DNA from: a plasmid
Length of the DNA stretch: 64,000 nucleotides
Sequence record: NZ_CP104760.1
Strand: one strand, 5' to 3'
The translations under genes and the position numbers were made by a program. A model generated the notes under the pieces. That model was not told where the DNA came from and made no database searches. It was given only the letters and a program-made list of their open reading frames with translations. Below are positions 1,873 through 56,826 of the stretch, piece by piece (position 1 is the first letter of the stretch; each line of letters starts with the position of its first letter).

Positions 1873-4353
1873 ATGAAAATCATTAAACCACGCCACCTGG
1901 GCTTGTTACCGCGCCCCTTCCGTTGGCAGCGCCAGCACTATCTCGGCGTCGCCGTTATGGCGATGATAAATATGGATGCGCTGCCGCGCCTGCTGACCGA
2001 GCAGGCGCTATGGAATCTGCTGCCAGAGGCGCTGCAGTCGCCCGATGGCGTGCTCGATCACGGCCTGCCTAAACCGCACCCGGAGTTTCTCGCCAGCGGC
2101 TTTGCCTTTCCGCCCGGCGGCGCGGCATCGCACTGTATCGCCCGCATCCAGGTAGCCGATCGGGAAAAAACGCTGCACGTTTACGGCGATCGCCAGCGGC
2201 GGGAGGATGGCCTCAGCGCACCGCAGCCTTTTACGCAGATGCCGCTCGACTGGCAACATGCGTTGGGCGACGCAGGCGACAGCGAAAATCCGCTGGGCAA
2301 GGCGATACCCAACGTCGAGGCGGCCGCGCCGCTGCTGATCCAGCCCGGCGCGGGCGCGCTTCCTGCCAGCTTTAACGCGGTGCCGTTAAGCGCGCCGCGT
2401 CGCCTGCGCCACGTTGGCAGCGCCTTTGACGAGGCCTGGCTGGCGCATGACTATCCTGGCTTCGCCCGCGATGCCGACCGACGCCTGTTTAACCAGGGCG
2501 ATGCGGATCAGCGCTGGGACGATCGCGACGCCCTGCCCGCTGGCGCCGCCTGGCGCATTGAAAACATGCATCCAGATAAATCGCTGCTTGAGGGATGCCT
2601 GCCGCCGTGGCAGGCACGCTGTTTCGTGGTGCGTCAGCATACCCACGGCGAGATGTTTGAAGCGATCCCGCTGCGCGCCACGACGCTGCACTTTTTCCCT
2701 CATCTGGAGCGCATTGTGATGATCTGGCATGGCGAGCTGGCGATCCGTGAAGATGACGCTGCAGACGTGCTCACCACGGTCGCAGCGCTCGAGTCGATCC
2801 ACCAGCCGCGCACGCCCGAAGCCTATGAAGAGATCACGCGGCAACGCAGCGACCCCGAACGCTCGGTGCTGCTTGCGTTACGCGACGGCGAGTTGCTGCC
2901 CCCAGGCAGCGCCATTACGGATGACGAGCCTGAACCGCCTCCCGGCCCGACAGATCGCAACCTTGCGCGCTGGGAAACGGCGCAGCGCCAGCAGCTGCGG
3001 CATGCGCACAGCGACAGCGGGATGGATATAGATGCGCTGGCGCCCACCCGACCGCGCGCTCCGACGGTGCCGCTGGAGGATCTGCATGATTATATCGACG
3101 CGCAGGATCGCGCCGCGCAGCAGCAGCTGGCGCAGATGATAACGCGCTATCAGCAGGAAGCGGCGCTGGCTCCGCCCGCCGCCAGACCGGCCGCCGCGAT
3201 AGAGACCTATCGCAGCCAGCGCGCCGCGTTTGACGAGAACGCGCAGCAGCAGCCGATGGATGACCGTCAGCGTACGTTCAGCTCTCAGGCGCTGCGTGAC
3301 AGCTACCGCTTTAATGCTCATCAGCTGAGCGCGCCCGAGCGCCTGACGCCCGCGCAGTCGGCGCAGTTGCGTCAGGCGGTGCTGACGCGCGATGGCGACT
3401 GCCGCGAGATGGATCTCACCGGCGCGGATCTGTCAGGGCTTGACCTGCGCGACACCGACTTCAGCGGCGCGCTGCTGGAGAATGTCGATTTCAGCCACTG
3501 CCAGCTCGACGGCAGCCTGTTCAGCAATGCCGTGCTGACGCGCGCAGAACTGCATCGCTGCTCAGCCCGCGCCTGCGCCTTCGATAATGCCAGCCTGGCT
3601 CTGGCCCAGTGCTGTTACGCCGACTTTAGCGATTCAGTCTTCAGCGAGACGGAGTGCCGGGATCTGATGCTGGAACAGTGCGTTTTCGATCGCGCCACCC
3701 TCAGTGACGTAATGCTGACACAGGCGAGCCTGGCGCACTGCCGCTTTCATCATGCGCAGATCGTCAATGCCCATTTCAGCGAGCTGACGCTGCAGGCGCT
3801 CGACTTCAGTCACGCCACGCTGCGCAAAGTCTATTTCGTCGAGTGCCATCTGCTGGCGCTCAGTTTCGAACAGGCGCGCCTGACGGCGGTGGGCTTCGTC
3901 GACTGTCAGGCGCCAGAAATCTGTTTTCATCAGGCGCAGCTGCATACTTCGCTGTTTGTCACCGATACGGCCCTGATCCGCGCCGACTTCAGCGGCGCCA
4001 CGCTGACGCAGTGCAATCTGCGGGAGACGCGGCTGGCGCAGGCGAACTTTTCTCACGCCATGCTGATCAACAGCGACCTCAGCGGCGCGGACTGTACGCA
4101 GGCGGATATGCGGCGGATGCAGGCCAGGGAGTGCCAGTTTACCCGTGCGGATTTGACGCGGGCGACGCTGGCGGAGAGCGACCTGATCGGCGCCTCCTTC
4201 TCAAAATCTCAGCTGCAGGGATGTGATTTCAGCGGCTGCAACCTGTTCCGCGCCGACCTCTCGCTTAGCGTGCGCGATGCGACGACGCGCTTCGAAGAGG
4301 CCTGGCTTAACGGCATGAAAACCGCGCCGCAGCGCGACGAGGAGCATTCGTGA
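1873..4353 (+). CDS. DUF2169-domain protein with C-terminal pentapeptide-repeat region (VgrG-associated adaptor-like)
   Basis: The N-terminal region is typical of DUF2169 proteins found directly downstream of vgrG. The C-terminal third consists of A(D/N)LSGxxLxx pentapeptide repeats. Confidence 0.75.
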   Translation: MKIIKPRHLGLLPRPFRWQRQHYLGVAVMAMINMDALPRLLTEQALWNLLPEALQSPDGVLDHGLPKPHPEFLASGFAFPPGGAASHCIARIQVADREKTLHVYGDRQRREDGLSAPQPFTQMPLDWQHALGDAGDSENPLGKAIPNVEAAAPLLIQPGAGALPASFNAVPLSAPRRLRHVGSAFDEAWLAHDYPGFARDADRRLFNQGDADQRWDDRDALPAGAAWRIENMHPDKSLLEGCLPPWQARCFVVRQHTHGEMFEAIPLRATTLHFFPHLERIVMIWHGELAIREDDAADVLTTVAALESIHQPRTPEAYEEITRQRSDPERSVLLALRDGELLPPGSAITDDEPEPPPGPTDRNLARWETAQRQQLRHAHSDSGMDIDALAPTRPRAPTVPLEDLHDYIDAQDRAAQQQLAQMITRYQQEAALAPPAARPAAAIETYRSQRAAFDENAQQQPMDDRQRTFSSQALRDSYRFNAHQLSAPERLTPAQSAQLRQAVLTRDGDCREMDLTGADLSGLDLRDTDFSGALLENVDFSHCQLDGSLFSNAVLTRAELHRCSARACAFDNASLALAQCCYADFSDSVFSETECRDLMLEQCVFDRATLSDVMLTQASLAHCRFHHAQIVNAHFSELTLQALDFSHATLRKVYFVECHLLALSFEQARLTAVGFVDCQAPEICFHQAQLHTSLFVTDTALIRADFSGATLTQCNLRETRLAQANFSHAMLINSDLSGADCTQADMRRMQARECQFTRADLTRATLAESDLIGASFSKSQLQGCDFSGCNLFRADLSLSVRDATTRFEEAWLNGMKTAPQRDEEHS

Positions 4354-52180: not shown

Positions 52181-52210
52181 AGCCCGCCGCGTGCGGGCTG
52201 ACTTTCTTGC
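52181..52210 (+). terminator. Rho-independent terminator of malPQ
   Basis: Stem AGCCCGC / GCGGGCT with loop CGCGT, then a T-rich tail. Confidence 0.6.
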
Positions 52211-52439
52211 GCCAGCGATATTCGTGGCGCAGTCGGGCGCCAGGCTAATGCGGCCCTGGTCAACGGCCAGCAGCGATCCTTTCGCTATTCCAGCATCATG
52301 ATAATCAATGGCTTTTCTGACAAATTCTATACATTAAGGCGACAGATGCACTAAACGCCAAAGCTAAAATGCTGCGCTGCATAGCCTGCCACCCTTTGAT
52401 AATTTCAATTTCAGAGGATATAAAGTACGTAATTTCTTC

Positions 52440-53129
52440 TCAAAATAAATCGCTCGTTCCAAATATACGATTAAGGTTCGTTTTCCCAACCTTAGTGACA
52501 AAAACGGCGCGGCTGTTTTTTTTCTTTATAATCCATTCTGATTTAACGAATCGATCTGCAAGAATATTTCCCAGAAAGCCGCCAAGGTGCGGGACGCGTT
52601 CAGTCCAGTCCATACACTGGATTGCAACTTTTTCTGGGATTGACTCCGGGCCAGCTGGAAGCAAATTATGATAGCTAAACCAGTCAGCCCCGTTACTGGT
52701 CAAATGAATAGTCTTAGAATGACCTTCAGTCTGAATGTAATGTAATTCGAGCAACTTTTGATAAATTAAAACGCCAAGATGTCCAGCCAGATGATTAAAA
52801 CAATAACGAGCCTGACATATTTCATTTTCAGGTAACTTCCGGTGTATTCCTTTACTACTGGCAAGATACATAACCGACTCTACAACAGAGGCTACATCAG
52901 AGGAGCTGAGCGTAAAATACTTAAATTTACCTTGCTTAAAGGTTTTCACAAGGCCGCTGTCAACAAGTGCTTTAAGATGAGCCGTTGCGGCTGAAGGCAG
53001 AAGGCCAGTTCCGTATGCCAGCTCTTTTGCCGTGAAATATCGTCCCTCCATCATCAGAACTAACATTTCAAGTCTGCGCTGATTCCCTAAGGCTATAGCT
53101 AACTGATTTAAAACATTTTTATTAAACAT
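52440..53129 (-). CDS. Winged-helix (ArsR/SmtB-like) transcriptional regulator with an extra C-terminal domain; low-GC island gene
   Basis: HTH segment LEMLVLMMEGRYFTAKELAYGTGLLPSAATAHLKALVDSGLV. AT-rich codon usage unlike the flanking mal genes. Divergent from the peptide/MccB-like operon. Confidence 0.6.
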   Translation of the reverse strand: MFNKNVLNQLAIALGNQRRLEMLVLMMEGRYFTAKELAYGTGLLPSAATAHLKALVDSGLVKTFKQGKFKYFTLSSSDVASVVESVMYLASSKGIHRKLPENEICQARYCFNHLAGHLGVLIYQKLLELHYIQTEGHSKTIHLTSNGADWFSYHNLLPAGPESIPEKVAIQCMDWTERVPHLGGFLGNILADRFVKSEWIIKKKNSRAVFVTKVGKTNLNRIFGTSDLF

Positions 53130-53191
53130 AGTTCATCCTTGACTGAATGGTTAAAACTTGAAACATATCCTGAAACGTTCTAATTGTATTT

Positions 53192-53212
53192 TTGCATTGT
53201 ATCTAAATGCAA
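53192..53212. promoter_or_regulatory. Inverted repeat TTGCAT-N9-ATGCAA in the divergent promoter region of the island
   Basis: Perfect 6-bp arms, read directly. Lies 37 bp upstream of the peptide start codon. Confidence 0.35.
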
Positions 53213-53248
53213 TACAAGTTTATTTCATTTAATTATAGGGGGTTCATT

Positions 53249-53302
53249 ATGAAATTTACAAAATTTAATGCGTCAAATGCAACTCTGGCTGCTGTAGGTT
53301 GA
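53249..53302 (+). CDS. 17-aa peptide MKFTKFNASNATLAAVG, candidate RiPP precursor for the downstream MccB-like enzyme
   Basis: Strong SD (GGGGG, 6 nt spacer) then ATG. Followed after 17 nt by a stable attenuator hairpin. Arrangement as in mccA-mccB. Confidence 0.45.
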   Translation: MKFTKFNASNATLAAVG

Positions 53303-53320
53303 TTTGGCCACTAAGAATTA

Positions 53321-53345
53321 AAGGGCCTGTAACAGGCCCTTTCTA
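53321..53345 (+). terminator. Intrinsic attenuator/terminator hairpin between peptide gene and MccB-like gene
   Basis: Stem AAGGGCCTG / CAGGCCCTT with loop TAA, then TCT; perfect 9-bp stem. Confidence 0.6.
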
Positions 53346-53372
53346 AGGGATTTAGTTAAAAGGGAGTTTATT

Positions 53373-54476
53373 ATGGATGTCATGAAGGTGTGTCTTAAAC
53401 CTACGGTTCTTTTATACAAAAACAACCCCAATAAAGTAGTGTTAAGGTTCTGTTCAGAAATAATAGAATTTGATGATGAGCGTGGCGATATACGGTTTTT
53501 CTTCGGTTTACTATGTGGAGCGTACACCTCGAAAGAAATCCTTGATGAGTATGCCAAAAAATATCCATATGATTCAGGCAGAGCCAGAGATTATCTGGAT
53601 ACGCTTAATGAACTGAAACTGATTGAACTACAACCTCAGGATTATAGCCCACTAAGTGACGCTCAGAAAGAAAGATATTCGCGAAACTTTGAATTCTTTA
53701 ATTCAGCTTTGCCAGTTGGAATGAACAAATATGGCATTCAGTGTTCCTTACTTGACAGTCGGGTAGTCGTATTAGGATGTGGAGGACTCGGTAGCCATAT
53801 CATTCTTGAACTCGCCGCGTTGGGAGTCGGAAACCTGACTATCGTTGACTTTGATCTGATTGAACTTAGTAACCTGAACAGGCAGATTCTATACAGAGAA
53901 GCAGATCTCGGACGAAAAAAAGTGTTTGCTGCAAGAAATAATGCCCTTACTTTCAACTCCAGTATTAATATCACCCCCGTTGAAAAGAAAATTGAATCAG
54001 TTTTAGATATAAAAGAAATAATTGTTGATCATGATCTTGTAATCTGCGTTGCAGATAAACCGCGAAACAGTATGGTTAAATGGCTTAATGAAGCCTGCTG
54101 CAAAGCAAAGATACCTTACATCAATGGCGGGCTTGATATTCGTAAGGCTGTTTTCTATTCGGTTATCCCTGGTGAAACCGGCTGCACAGAATGCTGGAAA
54201 TCATTTTTGCCCGAACAAAACAGGAAAGTAATCGATGAGGATAGCAGTACCCAAAATGATTATATGACCCCAGCCCCGGCTCTTTCAGCTCTCGTGTCTG
54301 TGACAACGGGCGCTATGATCTGTGAAGCAATTAAACTGTTAACTGATCTACAGCCACCCTCGCTGACAAACAATCTTAAAACCTTCTCTTTTGATGATTT
54401 GACTATCACTACAACTGAAAAGTGGAGGTTAAATCCAGAGTGTCATTGCTGCGAAATTATCGAAGGCCGAAAATGA
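53373..54476 (+). CDS. MccB-like ThiF/E1-family peptide adenylyltransferase (microcin C-type RiPP maturation enzyme)
   Basis: Rossmann motif VVVLGCGGLGSHI. ERYSRNFEFF and GETGCTEC motifs align with E. coli MccB (NRYSRNFLHY, GKTGCYEC). Second Cys cluster CHCC at the C-terminus. About 110-aa N-terminal extension, likely a peptide-clamp/RRE domain. Confidence 0.75.
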   Translation: MDVMKVCLKPTVLLYKNNPNKVVLRFCSEIIEFDDERGDIRFFFGLLCGAYTSKEILDEYAKKYPYDSGRARDYLDTLNELKLIELQPQDYSPLSDAQKERYSRNFEFFNSALPVGMNKYGIQCSLLDSRVVVLGCGGLGSHIILELAALGVGNLTIVDFDLIELSNLNRQILYREADLGRKKVFAARNNALTFNSSINITPVEKKIESVLDIKEIIVDHDLVICVADKPRNSMVKWLNEACCKAKIPYINGGLDIRKAVFYSVIPGETGCTECWKSFLPEQNRKVIDEDSSTQNDYMTPAPALSALVSVTTGAMICEAIKLLTDLQPPSLTNNLKTFSFDDLTITTTEKWRLNPECHCCEIIEGRK

Positions 54477-55642
54477 ACAAACTTATTTTATCTTATGCCA
54501 ACACTTCTTTTGGCTTCTGGTTGATATCATTTCTTATACCACTCATTGTTCTTGACATTAGTGGTTCAGCTTTTCTTGTCTCTCTTTCCTATGCGCTGAA
54601 TGTTTTTCCTTATATAGTAATAACCCCTCTCGCAGGGGTTGTTTGTGATACATATAACAGGAAAAATATCATTATGGCAGGGGAGTTATTTTGCTGTATT
54701 ACATCATTGTTACTGTTTTTTATTATCGATTTTAACCCTTCTGCTTATCTTGTTATAGGGCTAGGTTTTATTGTCTCATCCTTGTCAGCGATGCATCACC
54801 CTGTTTTTCAGTCGTTGATACCTGACCTGTATGAGCAAAATGAAATCAAGAATATTAACGCAAGCGTTGGCGTTATCGACAGCACCGTCAGTATACTTGC
54901 TCCGGTTATTTTAGGGGCGTTATTCTATAAATTCTCTAAGCAATCCGCATTGCTCCTTGTTACCCTTTGTTATTTTTTATCTTTTATAACCATTTTAACT
55001 ATACCTTATCACGGTCATAAGTCACAGGCGATATTGTCTTTGCAACACATCTGGGGTTCTTTACGGAAAGGTTTTGAATATGTCTTACATCAGAAAGCGT
55101 TATTCAATTTATCCTGCCTTTTTTTCTTTATTAATATGGGTATCAGGGTTATATTCCCCAACCTGATTTGGATTTATAGCGCCCAGTTTCATTTGAGCTC
55201 AGAGCAAATTGCTATAATGTTTGTGATTATTGGATTTGGCTCTATTTTAGGTGCGCGCATCGGGGCAGCTCTAATTGGACGGTTTGCCGATGTTTCTATC
55301 ATTATCTATTGCTCAATGATCATTGGCTTATGCAGTATACTGTTACTGGCCGCAAATAGTGCTCTGATGCACGCCATTACCTGGGCACTATCATCTTTAG
55401 TTCAATCGATTATTGTTGTTACCTATTTTACCTACAGACAAAAAGTCACAGAGCCTTATATACTCGGGAGAGTAGTATCAGTTACAAGATTAATATCTTA
55501 TATGGCTATACCTCTGGCTTCGGTATCAAGTGGCTGGGCAATATCAGTTTATGACTCTGTAACTGTTATTTATATTTTCAGCGCGCTGGTAATTCTGGTG
55601 CCGCTTTTATTCTATTGGCTGGCTACTCGAAAAGCAGTCTGA
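54473..55642 (+). CDS. MFS transporter (MccC-like exporter)
   Basis: 389 aa; 12 predicted TM helices; ATG overlaps the MccB-like stop (ATGA). Confidence 0.75.
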   Translation: MNKLILSYANTSFGFWLISFLIPLIVLDISGSAFLVSLSYALNVFPYIVITPLAGVVCDTYNRKNIIMAGELFCCITSLLLFFIIDFNPSAYLVIGLGFIVSSLSAMHHPVFQSLIPDLYEQNEIKNINASVGVIDSTVSILAPVILGALFYKFSKQSALLLVTLCYFLSFITILTIPYHGHKSQAILSLQHIWGSLRKGFEYVLHQKALFNLSCLFFFINMGIRVIFPNLIWIYSAQFHLSSEQIAIMFVIIGFGSILGARIGAALIGRFADVSIIIYCSMIIGLCSILLLAANSALMHAITWALSSLVQSIIVVTYFTYRQKVTEPYILGRVVSVTRLISYMAIPLASVSSGWAISVYDSVTVIYIFSALVILVPLLFYWLATRKAV

Positions 55643-55854
55643 AAGGTAAGAAGTCATTTCAATGCCTGCCTTTGGCAGGCCTGATGGTAAGAAATTAATC
55701 CTCTAAGATCTGGTGCTTTAAGCCTTGTAAATACTCCCTTTTGCTATGTTTTCATCGCCTCAGATTCCTGAGACTGAGCCGATGAAAAAGAAGAACAACC
55801 CTACGCCCTCACCATCCGTTCCCTGATAGCGATTAACCTCTCCGCAGTCGCTCA

Positions 55855-55880
55855 TAAAAAAGGTGCGCCGTAGCGCACCA
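55855..55880 (-). terminator. Rho-independent terminator of malM
   Basis: On the minus strand, GGTGCGC-TACG-GCGCACC followed by TTTTTTAT. Confidence 0.7.
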
Positions 55881-55911
55881 GGTGGGGCAACTCAGCACTG
55901 TCGGGGCAGCT

Positions 55912-56826
55912 TCACCCCTTGCCTTTAACACTGCTGATAAAGGTTTTACGCGCCGACGTCGAACCCAGTCGTTCCGCCTCGTCCAGCAGCCTGAGCGCCT
56001 TGTCGATATTGCCCTGATCCACCGCCTGACGAATGCTCTGATTAAAGTAACTTTCGGTGTCGCTCACCAGCGGCGCCGACGGCGTCGCGGGCGCGGTACG
56101 GACCGTCGCCTGCGTAACCGGCTGAGCGCTGCCGATCGTGACCGGCGCCGGGCTGGCGGAGCCAAACAGCGGGCCGACCAGAATCGAGGAGGCGGAGCTG
56201 GTAGAGACTTTCAGCTTAATCTTGCCGTCTACGCCGTGACGCGCGACGGGATCGGGAATATCGGGCACCGCATGGCCGGTGCCTCTGGCGTAGGCTTTTG
56301 CCGGATCGACCAGCGTGGTGGTCTGGTTGAGATCCTGCGCGGTGGTGAAGACCAGCAGATAAATTTTCTGCTGACCCGGCGCGGGCGTCAGCTTCATCAC
56401 CCCTTCCAGACGGTCGGCGCTCATGACGCCCGGCTGCTGATAGGTAAAAAAGCGGCTCGGAAACCAGGCGGCGGGACGCAGATTCTCGTCAAGCACCAGC
56501 ACGTTAGGGGCGAATACCTGATTGTGCGACACTTCGCTGCTCAGCGTTACCGTCATTTCGCCCTGGCTGGCGGGCAGGCTGTAGGCGGCGACCGGCCCGG
56601 TGATGCCGCTGGCCTCAAGCTGGGTACCGCTGGTGGCCAGCGTGGTGATCTGTGGACGCGAAGCATCAACGGGCTGCCAGTTCAGGCGCTGCAGGCTCGC
56701 TGTCGGAATAGTGGGCGCGGCAGAGAGATCCTGCGGCACCAGATTGATCTCAGCATGCGCTGGCAAGGCGAGGCTCGTCAGCAGCGCGGCGCTCAGACAG
56801 AGCGCGGTAAGCGTTTTCTTTTTCAT
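55912..56826 (-). CDS. malM: Maltose operon periplasmic protein MalM
   Basis: 304 aa with signal peptide; collinear with E. coli MalM (C-terminus …LLDEAERLGSTSAR.TFISSVKGKG). Confidence 0.92.
   Translation of the reverse strand: MKKKTLTALCLSAALLTSLALPAHAEINLVPQDLSAAPTIPTASLQRLNWQPVDASRPQITTLATSGTQLEASGITGPVAAYSLPASQGEMTVTLSSEVSHNQVFAPNVLVLDENLRPAAWFPSRFFTYQQPGVMSADRLEGVMKLTPAPGQQKIYLLVFTTAQDLNQTTTLVDPAKAYARGTGHAVPDIPDPVARHGVDGKIKLKVSTSSASSILVGPLFGSASPAPVTIGSAQPVTQATVRTAPATPSAPLVSDTESYFNQSIRQAVDQGNIDKALRLLDEAERLGSTSARKTFISSVKGKG

Follow-up and report, generated by a model that had tools for sequence, protein, structure and literature searches.

Which substrate is activated by the ThiF-like enzyme encoded on a low-GC island of plasmid NZ_CP104760.1, and what is made of it? 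In 2014 Bantysh et al. pointed out that many genes of the MccB/PaaA family have no recognizable Asn-containing precursor, and that another residue is possibly the one modified (PMC4010828). The sequence studied here, referred to throughout as the window, is a stretch of 64,000 nt of this plasmid, the host of which is recorded by NCBI as Pantoea piersonii. In the window an open reading frame (ORF) of 17 sense codons lies just upstream of the gene for the enzyme, and there is little doubt in our minds that it is the precursor gene for this MccB-like protein. The best explanation of the locus as a whole, one that we hold with about as much doubt as confidence, is that it belongs to an uncharacterized ThiF-like (MccB/PaaA-type) family of peptides that are made on the ribosome and modified after translation (RiPPs), in which the C-terminus of the precursor is adenylated, a lactone is then formed with Ser9, and the product is exported.

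The precursor peptide gene, MKFTKFNASNATLAAVG followed by TGA, occupies positions 53249–53302 of the + strand, begins with ATG and is conserved in homologous loci. A GGGGG Shine-Dalgarno (SD) sequence at 53238–53242 (+) stands 6 nt before the ATG, just as the earlier note on this DNA had described, and SD-like sequences also precede the homologous small ORFs. The N-terminal part of the peptide, some 7–8 residues long, is basic and hydrophobic and is the putative recognition part; the C-terminal 10-mer core reads A-S9-N-A11-T-L-A-A-V-G17. An in-frame extension to 31 aa, starting at 53207, was rejected, since it is not conserved at homologous loci. The peptide ends in Gly, and the earlier note had held that it is not a canonical MccA. 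This stands, for no Asn-terminated small ORF with a ribosome-binding site is present in the intergenic regions of the island. Such an ORF was sought on both strands of 52200–56000 and was rejected as a candidate, the matches being located inside the enzyme gene, devoid of an SD sequence, or 5–10 codons long and on the wrong strand.

The strongest evidence comes from comparison with other genomes. The comparative loci came from look-ups of exact proteins together with a single scan each of genomes and of metagenomes; most were supplied by the look-ups and the metagenome scan, and the sole close relative returned by the genome scan was Pantoea sp. Eser. Thirty-three loci combined usable DNA upstream with an enzyme at least 33% identical to that of the window. 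In 32 of the 33 the enzyme gene is directly preceded by a small ORF that has an SD sequence and ends [S/T]-x-A-x6-stop; of the 3,798 further small ORFs at these loci, only 1.7% have such an ending. The proposals of the earlier note that the small ORF is a genuine precursor-type gene for the MccB-like enzyme, and that it should be conserved beside the enzyme gene, are both borne out by these counts.

The taxa concerned include Salmonella, Pantoea, Pseudomonas, Burkholderia, Xenorhabdus, Vibrio, Histophilus and Streptomyces, as well as metagenomes; as far as can be judged from sequence, this uncharacterized peptide family appears to be widespread. Examples are the peptides of Pantoea sp. Eser (MKFTKFNASNATLSAVG), two metagenome loci (MKFTKFNASNATLASVG in L103 and MKFTKSDATNATLAAVG in L104), Salmonella plasmids (MKFTKHATSNAKLALVG) and E. 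lignolyticus (MKFVKVKASNASLASVG). Others come from Xenorhabdus (MKVTKVKASNAGIADVG), Histophilus (MKFKKYQASDAKLASVG), Vibrio mangrovi (MAIKFTKASNATLSAVG), Pseudomonas (MTFEKASSAGDSQIG), Burkholderia (MSFEKISVAGTSQTG) and Streptomyces (MAIELNTRKASQAGLSFEG). With annotated starts, the precursors are 15–19 aa long. The Salmonella homologue of the ORF is unannotated in its RefSeq record. In Vibrio mangrovi (L015) three identical tandem copies, each with its own SD sequence, lie upstream of the enzyme gene at 3543–3596, 3686–3739 and 3829–3882; such gene amplification is typical for the precursors of RiPPs.

The nucleotide differences between related copies are of the kind expected for a coding sequence. 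In the four closest copies, third codon positions account for 41 of 59 differences, the ORFs of the window and of Pantoea sp. Eser differ by five synonymous and one nonsynonymous codon changes, and the codon for the conserved Ser is TCA, TCT or AGC, depending on the lineage, with Thr (ACG) in one locus. Because of the third-position bias, the synonymous changes and the switching of Ser codons, the small ORF appears to be translated and to be under purifying selection.

The ORF is followed by a stem-loop, AAAGGGCCTGT-A-ACAGGCCCTTT, at 53320–53342 (+), a putative partial terminator or transcript-stabilizing hairpin. It starts 17 nt past the stop codon, and the ATG of the enzyme gene (53373) is 30 nt beyond it. 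The arms, 53320–53330 and 53332–53342, are 100% complementary, so that the perfect stem-loop of the earlier note is indeed present. The 73-nt intergenic region folds at −20.6 kcal/mol (z = −1.7). By itself, a hairpin at a single locus is not strong evidence, and the comparative data are decisive: a stem-loop was found 3′ of the small ORF in 18 of the 18 loci that were folded, many of them with a U-run. The likeness to the E. coli order of mccA, hairpin and mccB, which the earlier note had drawn, thus extends to the family. Rfam gave no credible match within 52300–55900, and a known RNA element in the leader was rejected.

A short ORF followed by a terminator-like hairpin before an operon is also the classic layout of an attenuator. 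The ORF would then encode not a substrate but a regulatory leader peptide, by which transcription past the hairpin into the genes for the enzyme and the exporter is controlled. We give this explanation very little credence. The Ser, the Ala and the C-terminal register are kept from Proteobacteria to Actinobacteria while the nucleotides drift, Vibrio carries its three identical copies in tandem, and the hairpin is located wholly 3′ of the stop codon. The enzyme, moreover, is predicted to have a peptide-clamp domain, as described below, and such a domain needs a peptide substrate. A regulatory role would also be compatible with a role as substrate, as in mccA.

The enzyme gene, 53373–54476 (+), encodes a ThiF-like peptide adenylyltransferase of 367 aa. 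The protein is identical to WP_269950723.1 of Pantoea piersonii, which is annotated merely as "ThiF family adenylyltransferase (plasmid)". Residues 123–358 match the Pfam ThiF model (5.9e-50, 170 bits), and a sequence search of the PDB gave E. coli MccB as the best match (1.9e-36), with MoeB next and then PaaA (9e-19). An AlphaFold2 model, built on a 64-sequence family alignment, had a predicted local distance difference test (pLDDT) score of 94.5. The top Foldseek matches of this model were all MccB, over 360 of 367 columns with a template-modelling (TM) score of 0.80, followed by PaaA, which indicates an MccB fold. Sequence alignments with MccB begin at residue 88, the N-terminal 90 or so residues being without sequence similarity to it; according to the model, this domain is predicted to adopt the peptide-clamp or RiPP recognition element (RRE) fold.

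Over the adenylation domain the enzyme is 32% identical to MccB and has the same Mg-binding Asp and Zn cysteines. The G-x-G-G-x-G motif, D161, N167, R170, K183 and D228 are invariant in all 64 family members, as are the four Zn cysteines (CxxC...CxxC); Asp255, Arg257 and Arg258 are conserved as well. The invariance of the nucleotide, Mg and Zn residues suggests a catalytically competent adenylase rather than a docking scaffold.

Where would such an enzyme act on the peptide? Characterized ThiF-like enzymes all nucleotidylate a carboxylate (PMC12596934). The peptides of the window, Salmonella, E. lignolyticus and Vibrio contain neither Asp nor Glu. Since there is no side-chain carboxylate and ThiF-like enzymes act on carboxylates, the α-carboxylate of Gly17 would be the only possible site of adenylation in the window peptide, and activation at the peptide C-terminus is, in our judgment, likely. 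Gly17 had been singled out in the earlier note for its resemblance to the ends of ThiS, MoaD and ubiquitin. That note was right to the extent that Gly17 bears the sole carboxylate, but the residue itself is replaced in sister clades. Gly is the last residue throughout the window clade. In sister clades with the same S-x-A(-G) core the terminal residue is Ser (L024, L028 and L041), Asn (L026, L034 and L037), Trp (L036) or Tyr (L029 and L042).

These replacements bear directly on the idea that the peptide is a miniature ubiquitin-like protein or sulfur carrier, which after adenylation of its terminal Gly is either thiocarboxylated or coupled to the amine of a target. A terminal Gly is indeed shared with ThiS, MoaD and ubiquitin, and the enzyme scores on the MoeB, ThiF and SAMP-E1 models, all below their cut-offs. 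However, a peptide of 17 aa is not a β-grasp protein, the residue preceding the terminal Gly varies (V/I/T/E/R) and is not Gly, and the sister clades are not Gly-terminated. The crossover loop has no conserved Cys in the 64-member alignment, and no rhodanese domain was detected in the enzyme with Pfam or NCBIfam. Among the listed neighbours there is no cluster-conserved rhodanese, E2 or JAMM gene, rhodanese genes flanking the Histophilus locus only, and the conserved partner is an exporter. The PADLOC matches to E1 are generic and partial. An anti-phage E1-E2 system (of the Cap2 type found in cyclic-oligonucleotide-based anti-phage signalling systems, CBASS) was likewise rejected, as these partial E1-domain matches reached at most 57 bits. 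The analogy of the earlier note fails on the variable ends and the missing Cys, and a carrier function is most improbable.

The conserved feature of the family lies further upstream. When the peptides are aligned from their C-termini, the invariants are a Ser (Thr in L104) eight residues before the C-terminus and an Ala two residues after it, at fixed spacing. The position of Asn10 in the window peptide is occupied by N, D, S, V, Q, T, I, L or M across the family, and Asn7 is not conserved, so an internal Asn, which the earlier note had offered as the other candidate for the modification site, can be set aside. In calling the precursor non-canonical that note was correct; its emphasis fell on the Gly, and the invariant Ser was overlooked. 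Apart from this Ser or Thr, whose distance to the C-terminus is fixed, no side-chain nucleophile is invariant, while the last residue varies among G, S, N, W and Y. A constant distance from Ser to the C-terminus, combined with a variable last residue, is what would be expected if the two groups react together. On this ground we tentatively propose a lactone between Ser9 and Gly17, with the reservation that its chances are somewhat short of even.

The same precursor, adenylated at its C-terminus, might be closed by another nucleophile: a backbone amide to give a cyclic imide, as proposed for EnfB, the deformylated N-terminal amine to give a head-to-tail ring, a Lys side chain to give a lactam, or the preceding carbonyl oxygen to give a C-terminal oxazolone. 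EnfB (imide) and OxzB (oxazolone) are precedents among ThiF-like enzymes (PMC12596934), and most family peptides have Lys or Arg just upstream of the core. The L031 peptide has no Lys; 5 to 11 residues precede the core, and the size of a head-to-tail ring would not be conserved; an oxazolone would be prone to hydrolysis, and no enzyme that could act on it afterwards is encoded in the minimal cluster. The invariant Ser/Thr and its fixed spacing would be left unexplained by all of these options, and we regard closure by another nucleophile as unlikely.

Could the product be a peptidyl-nucleotide like microcin C, a Trojan horse in which adenosine monophosphate (AMP), or another nucleoside monophosphate, forms a stable bond of a new kind with the C-terminal Gly? 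No solved relative is closer to the enzyme than MccB, whether in sequence or in fold, the operon is laid out like mccABC, hairpin included, and Asn-terminated peptides occur at three sister loci; minimal three-gene mcc clusters are also known (PMC4010828, PMC12250964). Against this, Gly has no side-chain amide from which a succinimide and an N-P bond could be formed, and a plain acyl-adenylate is labile. Tyr239 of MccB is reported to be critical for the second adenylation, which makes the phosphoramidate (PMC12596934). It aligns with Leu254 of the window enzyme, and this column is Leu, Val or Ile in 64 of 64 family members, including enzymes beside Asn-terminated peptides. A C-terminal residue that varies among G, S, N, W and Y also misfits a warhead mimicking one aminoacyl-adenylate. 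Scans of the island with Pfam and NCBIfam gave no mccD-, mccE- or mccF-like gene, nor any HIT or peptidase immunity gene, and the exporter of the major facilitator superfamily (MFS) is unlike MccC. Taken together, these findings make a stable peptidyl-nucleotide quite improbable. Because Tyr239 is replaced in all 64 members, and because an N-P bond would need a side-chain nitrogen that Gly lacks, a stable AMP adduct of +329 Da, the mass shift named in the earlier note, appears less likely than a product of −18 Da. A relation between the last residue of the peptide and the residue at the Tyr239 position was considered and rejected, since this residue is aliphatic or Phe even beside Asn-terminated peptides.

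If the lactone is the product, it would be formed in the following way. The 17-mer would be translated from its own strong ribosome-binding site, and the hairpin, placed as it is in mccA-mccB, would presumably yield more peptide message than enzyme message. By analogy with MccB, whose fold the enzyme shares, the basic and hydrophobic N-terminal part would dock on the peptide clamp while the tail threads into the E1-like active site. ATP and Mg would then serve to adenylate the α-carboxylate of Gly17, the peptide's sole carboxylate. In the least certain step, the hydroxyl of Ser9 would attack the acyl-adenylate and release AMP. The expected product is a lariat depsipeptide, with an 8-residue tail and a 9-residue, 28-membered macrolactone, 18 Da below the linear peptide, which would be exported by the translationally coupled MFS pump. 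For the family as a whole it is conceivable, though we lean slightly the other way, that an MccB-fold enzyme esterifies the adenylated C-terminus to the invariant Ser eight residues upstream, giving lariat depsipeptides shaped like autoinducing peptides (AIPs), with the enzyme and an MFS exporter as the core of a horizontally scattered system.

Several points weigh against this reading. The invariant Ser, the Ala and their spacing could be a binding register in the enzyme channel rather than reacting groups. At one of the 33 loci (L030) the conserved Ala is replaced by Ser, and the peptides at sister loci L026, L034 and L037 end in Asn, so that chemistry of the microcin C type is possible there. 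The + strand stem of the hairpin is followed by TTTCTAA, with no clean U-run, and termination may be weak; a terminator scan called the window stem on the − strand only. As for precedent, the chemistries described for ThiF-like RiPP enzymes in the 2025 reviews are phosphoramidate, indolizidone, thiolactone, cyclic imide and indolylamide. Ester formation by a ThiF-like enzyme is not reported in these reviews, according to which most of the ThiF-like RiPP sequence space is uncharacterized. A literature search found no description of this family and no paper that contains the peptide sequences; most subscription journals were outside its coverage, and an earlier description is possible.

The precursor and enzyme genes are part of an island of about 3.5 kb (52290–55800), which in the composition profile has a GC content of roughly 36–42%, compared with 60–67% in the flanks, and is thus some 20–25 points under its surroundings. 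Translations identify malM, lamB and malK among the flanking genes, and the insertion point of the island directly adjoins the malM-lamB-malK / malEFG region of the P. piersonii plasmid. The island has four genes, and the minimal operon is regulator, peptide, enzyme and exporter.

The regulator gene (52440–53129, −) is divergent and encodes 229 aa. The N-terminus is a winged helix of the ArsR/HlyU type (Pfam HTH_5, 1.3e-07; NCBIfam ArsR/SmtB, 1.1e-11), with PDB matches limited to residues 5–98. The C-terminal part, of about 135 aa, has no match in Pfam, NCBIfam or PDB sequences; kept beside these clusters in distant taxa, it is a candidate for the ligand-sensing part. Regulators homologous to this one, also divergent, occur at the Salmonella, E. 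lignolyticus, Xenorhabdus, Burkholderia and L103 loci, and at L050 of a more distant group. Between the regulator and precursor genes lies an inverted repeat, TTGCATT-N7-AATGCAA (53192–53212, assigned to neither strand), which is nested inside an outer repeat, TTGTATT...AATACAA (53184–53217). The inner repeat is identical in L103 and partly retained in Pantoea sp. Eser. These nested repeats are a candidate operator for the ArsR-like regulator. The presence of a dedicated regulator hints at a signalling or antibiotic role for the product.

The MFS exporter gene (54473–55642, +; Pfam MFS_1 and MFS_3, NCBIfam TIGR00900) encodes 389 aa, counted from an ATG at 54473 that overlaps the stop codon of the enzyme gene (ATGA), an overlap that suggests translational coupling. 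At every locus with listed gene calls, an MFS_3 gene is located immediately 3′ of the enzyme gene. No pairwise similarity to MccC was detectable (BLASTP E = 0.79), and orthology was rejected on this basis; the two exporters are analogous, not orthologous.

Related clusters have additional genes. On the Salmonella conjugative plasmid and two metagenome contigs, a gene for an AlkA_N-domain protein directly follows the MFS gene, and an ABM-family monooxygenase is encoded nearby (L008, 6333–7226 and 7303–7608; L104, 5450–6301 and 1170–1544; L103, 1708–2073). The DNA-glycosylase-like AlkA_N neighbour might hint at an immunity function. Neither of these accessory genes was found in the window with tblastn. 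In Pseudomonas, Burkholderia and Fluviispira the MFS gene is followed by a TENA/PqqC/haem-oxygenase-like gene (Haem_oxygenas_2; L011, 6416–7150; L017, 6421–7221; L019, 6321–7463), and in these branches, where the peptides have an S-x-A-G core, the product may be further oxidized.

In Pantoea sp. Eser, a stink-bug symbiont (L001, 4001–4045), codon 15 of the enzyme gene is a nonsense codon, TAA in place of the TAC of the window, and NCBI annotates the enzyme only as a 217-aa fragment (P0084). The precursor ORF and terminator are intact; in this reduced symbiont genome the system seems to have decayed recently.

A second, more distant peptide family was found upstream of ThiF-like enzymes that are 28–32% identical to that of the window and have an ITMSHFPP active-site motif. 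Examples from metagenome contigs L050/L092, L059, L064, L075 and L063 are MKISKAEHVVPMLAIHKSG, MQIINASSVMPTSSIHKNG, MKVARASNVVPTVSIHKHG, MKIDHGAQAIPVIATQGQG and MLRIEKLDKPVVPAVSVSKGG. All of these peptides are Gly-terminated, with Pro at the position of the Ser in the first family. At L050 there is a divergent HTH_20 regulator, and no MFS gene lies directly downstream. A different full-length ThiF-like homologue, 32% identical, is encoded on Pantoea agglomerans plasmid pNBBC01-5 (L102, 11634–12743), in a cluster with genes for an ectB-like transaminase, a TauD dioxygenase, and GNAT, CapA and ATP-grasp proteins. This is apparently a separate, non-RiPP or hybrid pathway.

With respect to the precursors missing from the MccB/PaaA family, the locus supplies one for a large branch, together with a sharp sequence rule, [S/T]-x-A-x6-COOH. 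The single carboxylate in the peptide would pin the site of activation. Should the lactone between Ser and the C-terminus be real, ThiF-like enzymes would gain a new ring-forming reaction, and Gram-negative bacteria of clinical and agricultural relevance a new class of exported small cyclic peptides. As the RefSeq record from Salmonella illustrates, the peptide genes are unannotated, and hence invisible to genome-mining pipelines.

Of the known systems, microcin C (mccA-mccB-mccC) is the nearest in organization. A tiny precursor gene with an SD sequence, a hairpin, an enzyme gene some 30 nt further on and an MFS exporter are common to both, and in E. coli the stop codon of mccA, the hairpin (GCCACCCTG...GGGTGGC) and the ATG of mccB are spaced almost as their counterparts are in the window. 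The two-domain enzyme fold is also the same, and activation of the C-terminal carboxylate is predicted here as well. On the other hand, the window peptide ends in Ala-Val-Gly and not Asn, with Gly in all close homologues, and an internal Ser is invariant. Tyr239 is replaced by Leu, Val or Ile, the N-terminal domain of the enzyme is dissimilar in sequence, and the MFS proteins are unrelated in pairwise comparison. There is no mccD, mccE or mccF, and the predicted product is a ring rather than a peptidyl-nucleotide. By these comparisons the system would be mcc-like in part, in the supply of precursor, clamp-guided activation and export, yet it probably should not be filed as a microcin C.

ThiF-ThiS, MoeB-MoaD and E1-ubiquitin share the adenylation domain with it, and what they activate is, as predicted here, the carboxylate of a C-terminal Gly. 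They differ from a system with a 17-mer substrate, no Gly-Gly, no catalytic Cys and no partner for sulfur transfer or of the E2 type. PaaA, which acts on PaaP in the pantocin A pathway of Pantoea agglomerans, is likewise an RRE-containing ThiF-like enzyme with a short ribosomal peptide as its substrate, and its host is again a Pantoea. What PaaA activates, however, are Glu side chains within an internal EEN motif, and additional enzymes are required; the window peptide lacks Glu, and no PaaB-type oxygenase is encoded in the cluster. The AIPs of the staphylococcal agr systems are exported peptides with 5-residue thiolactone rings, or in some species lactone rings, closed by Cys or Ser. The predicted product resembles them in having an exocyclic N-terminal tail and a macrocycle in which a side-chain nucleophile is joined to the C-terminal carboxyl. 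For AIP rings, however, the AgrB protease uses an internal peptide bond, and ATP-dependent adenylation plays no part; there are no agr genes here, and the predicted ring has 9 residues.

In IndF/IndA, which makes the indolylamide of Streptococcus pneumoniae, and EnfB/EnfA, which makes enterofaecin, RRE-ThiF enzymes adenylate the C-terminal α-carboxylate of a short ribosomal peptide, and an internal nucleophile closes the macrocycle with loss of water (PMC12150305, PMC12596934). IndF joins the indole nitrogen of Trp to the C-terminal Ile, and EnfB joins a backbone amide to the C-terminal Ile; EnfA has 21 aa, and its cluster contains no peptidase (PMC12150305, PMC12596934). These systems are from Firmicutes, with the precursor motifs NWYFI and WWIII. 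Their rings have 4 residues (Trp indole N) and 3 residues (backbone amide), compared with the 9-residue ring predicted here to be closed by a Ser hydroxyl. Likened to the present system by chemistry, and not by enzyme sequence, IndF and EnfB are its closest functional analogy.

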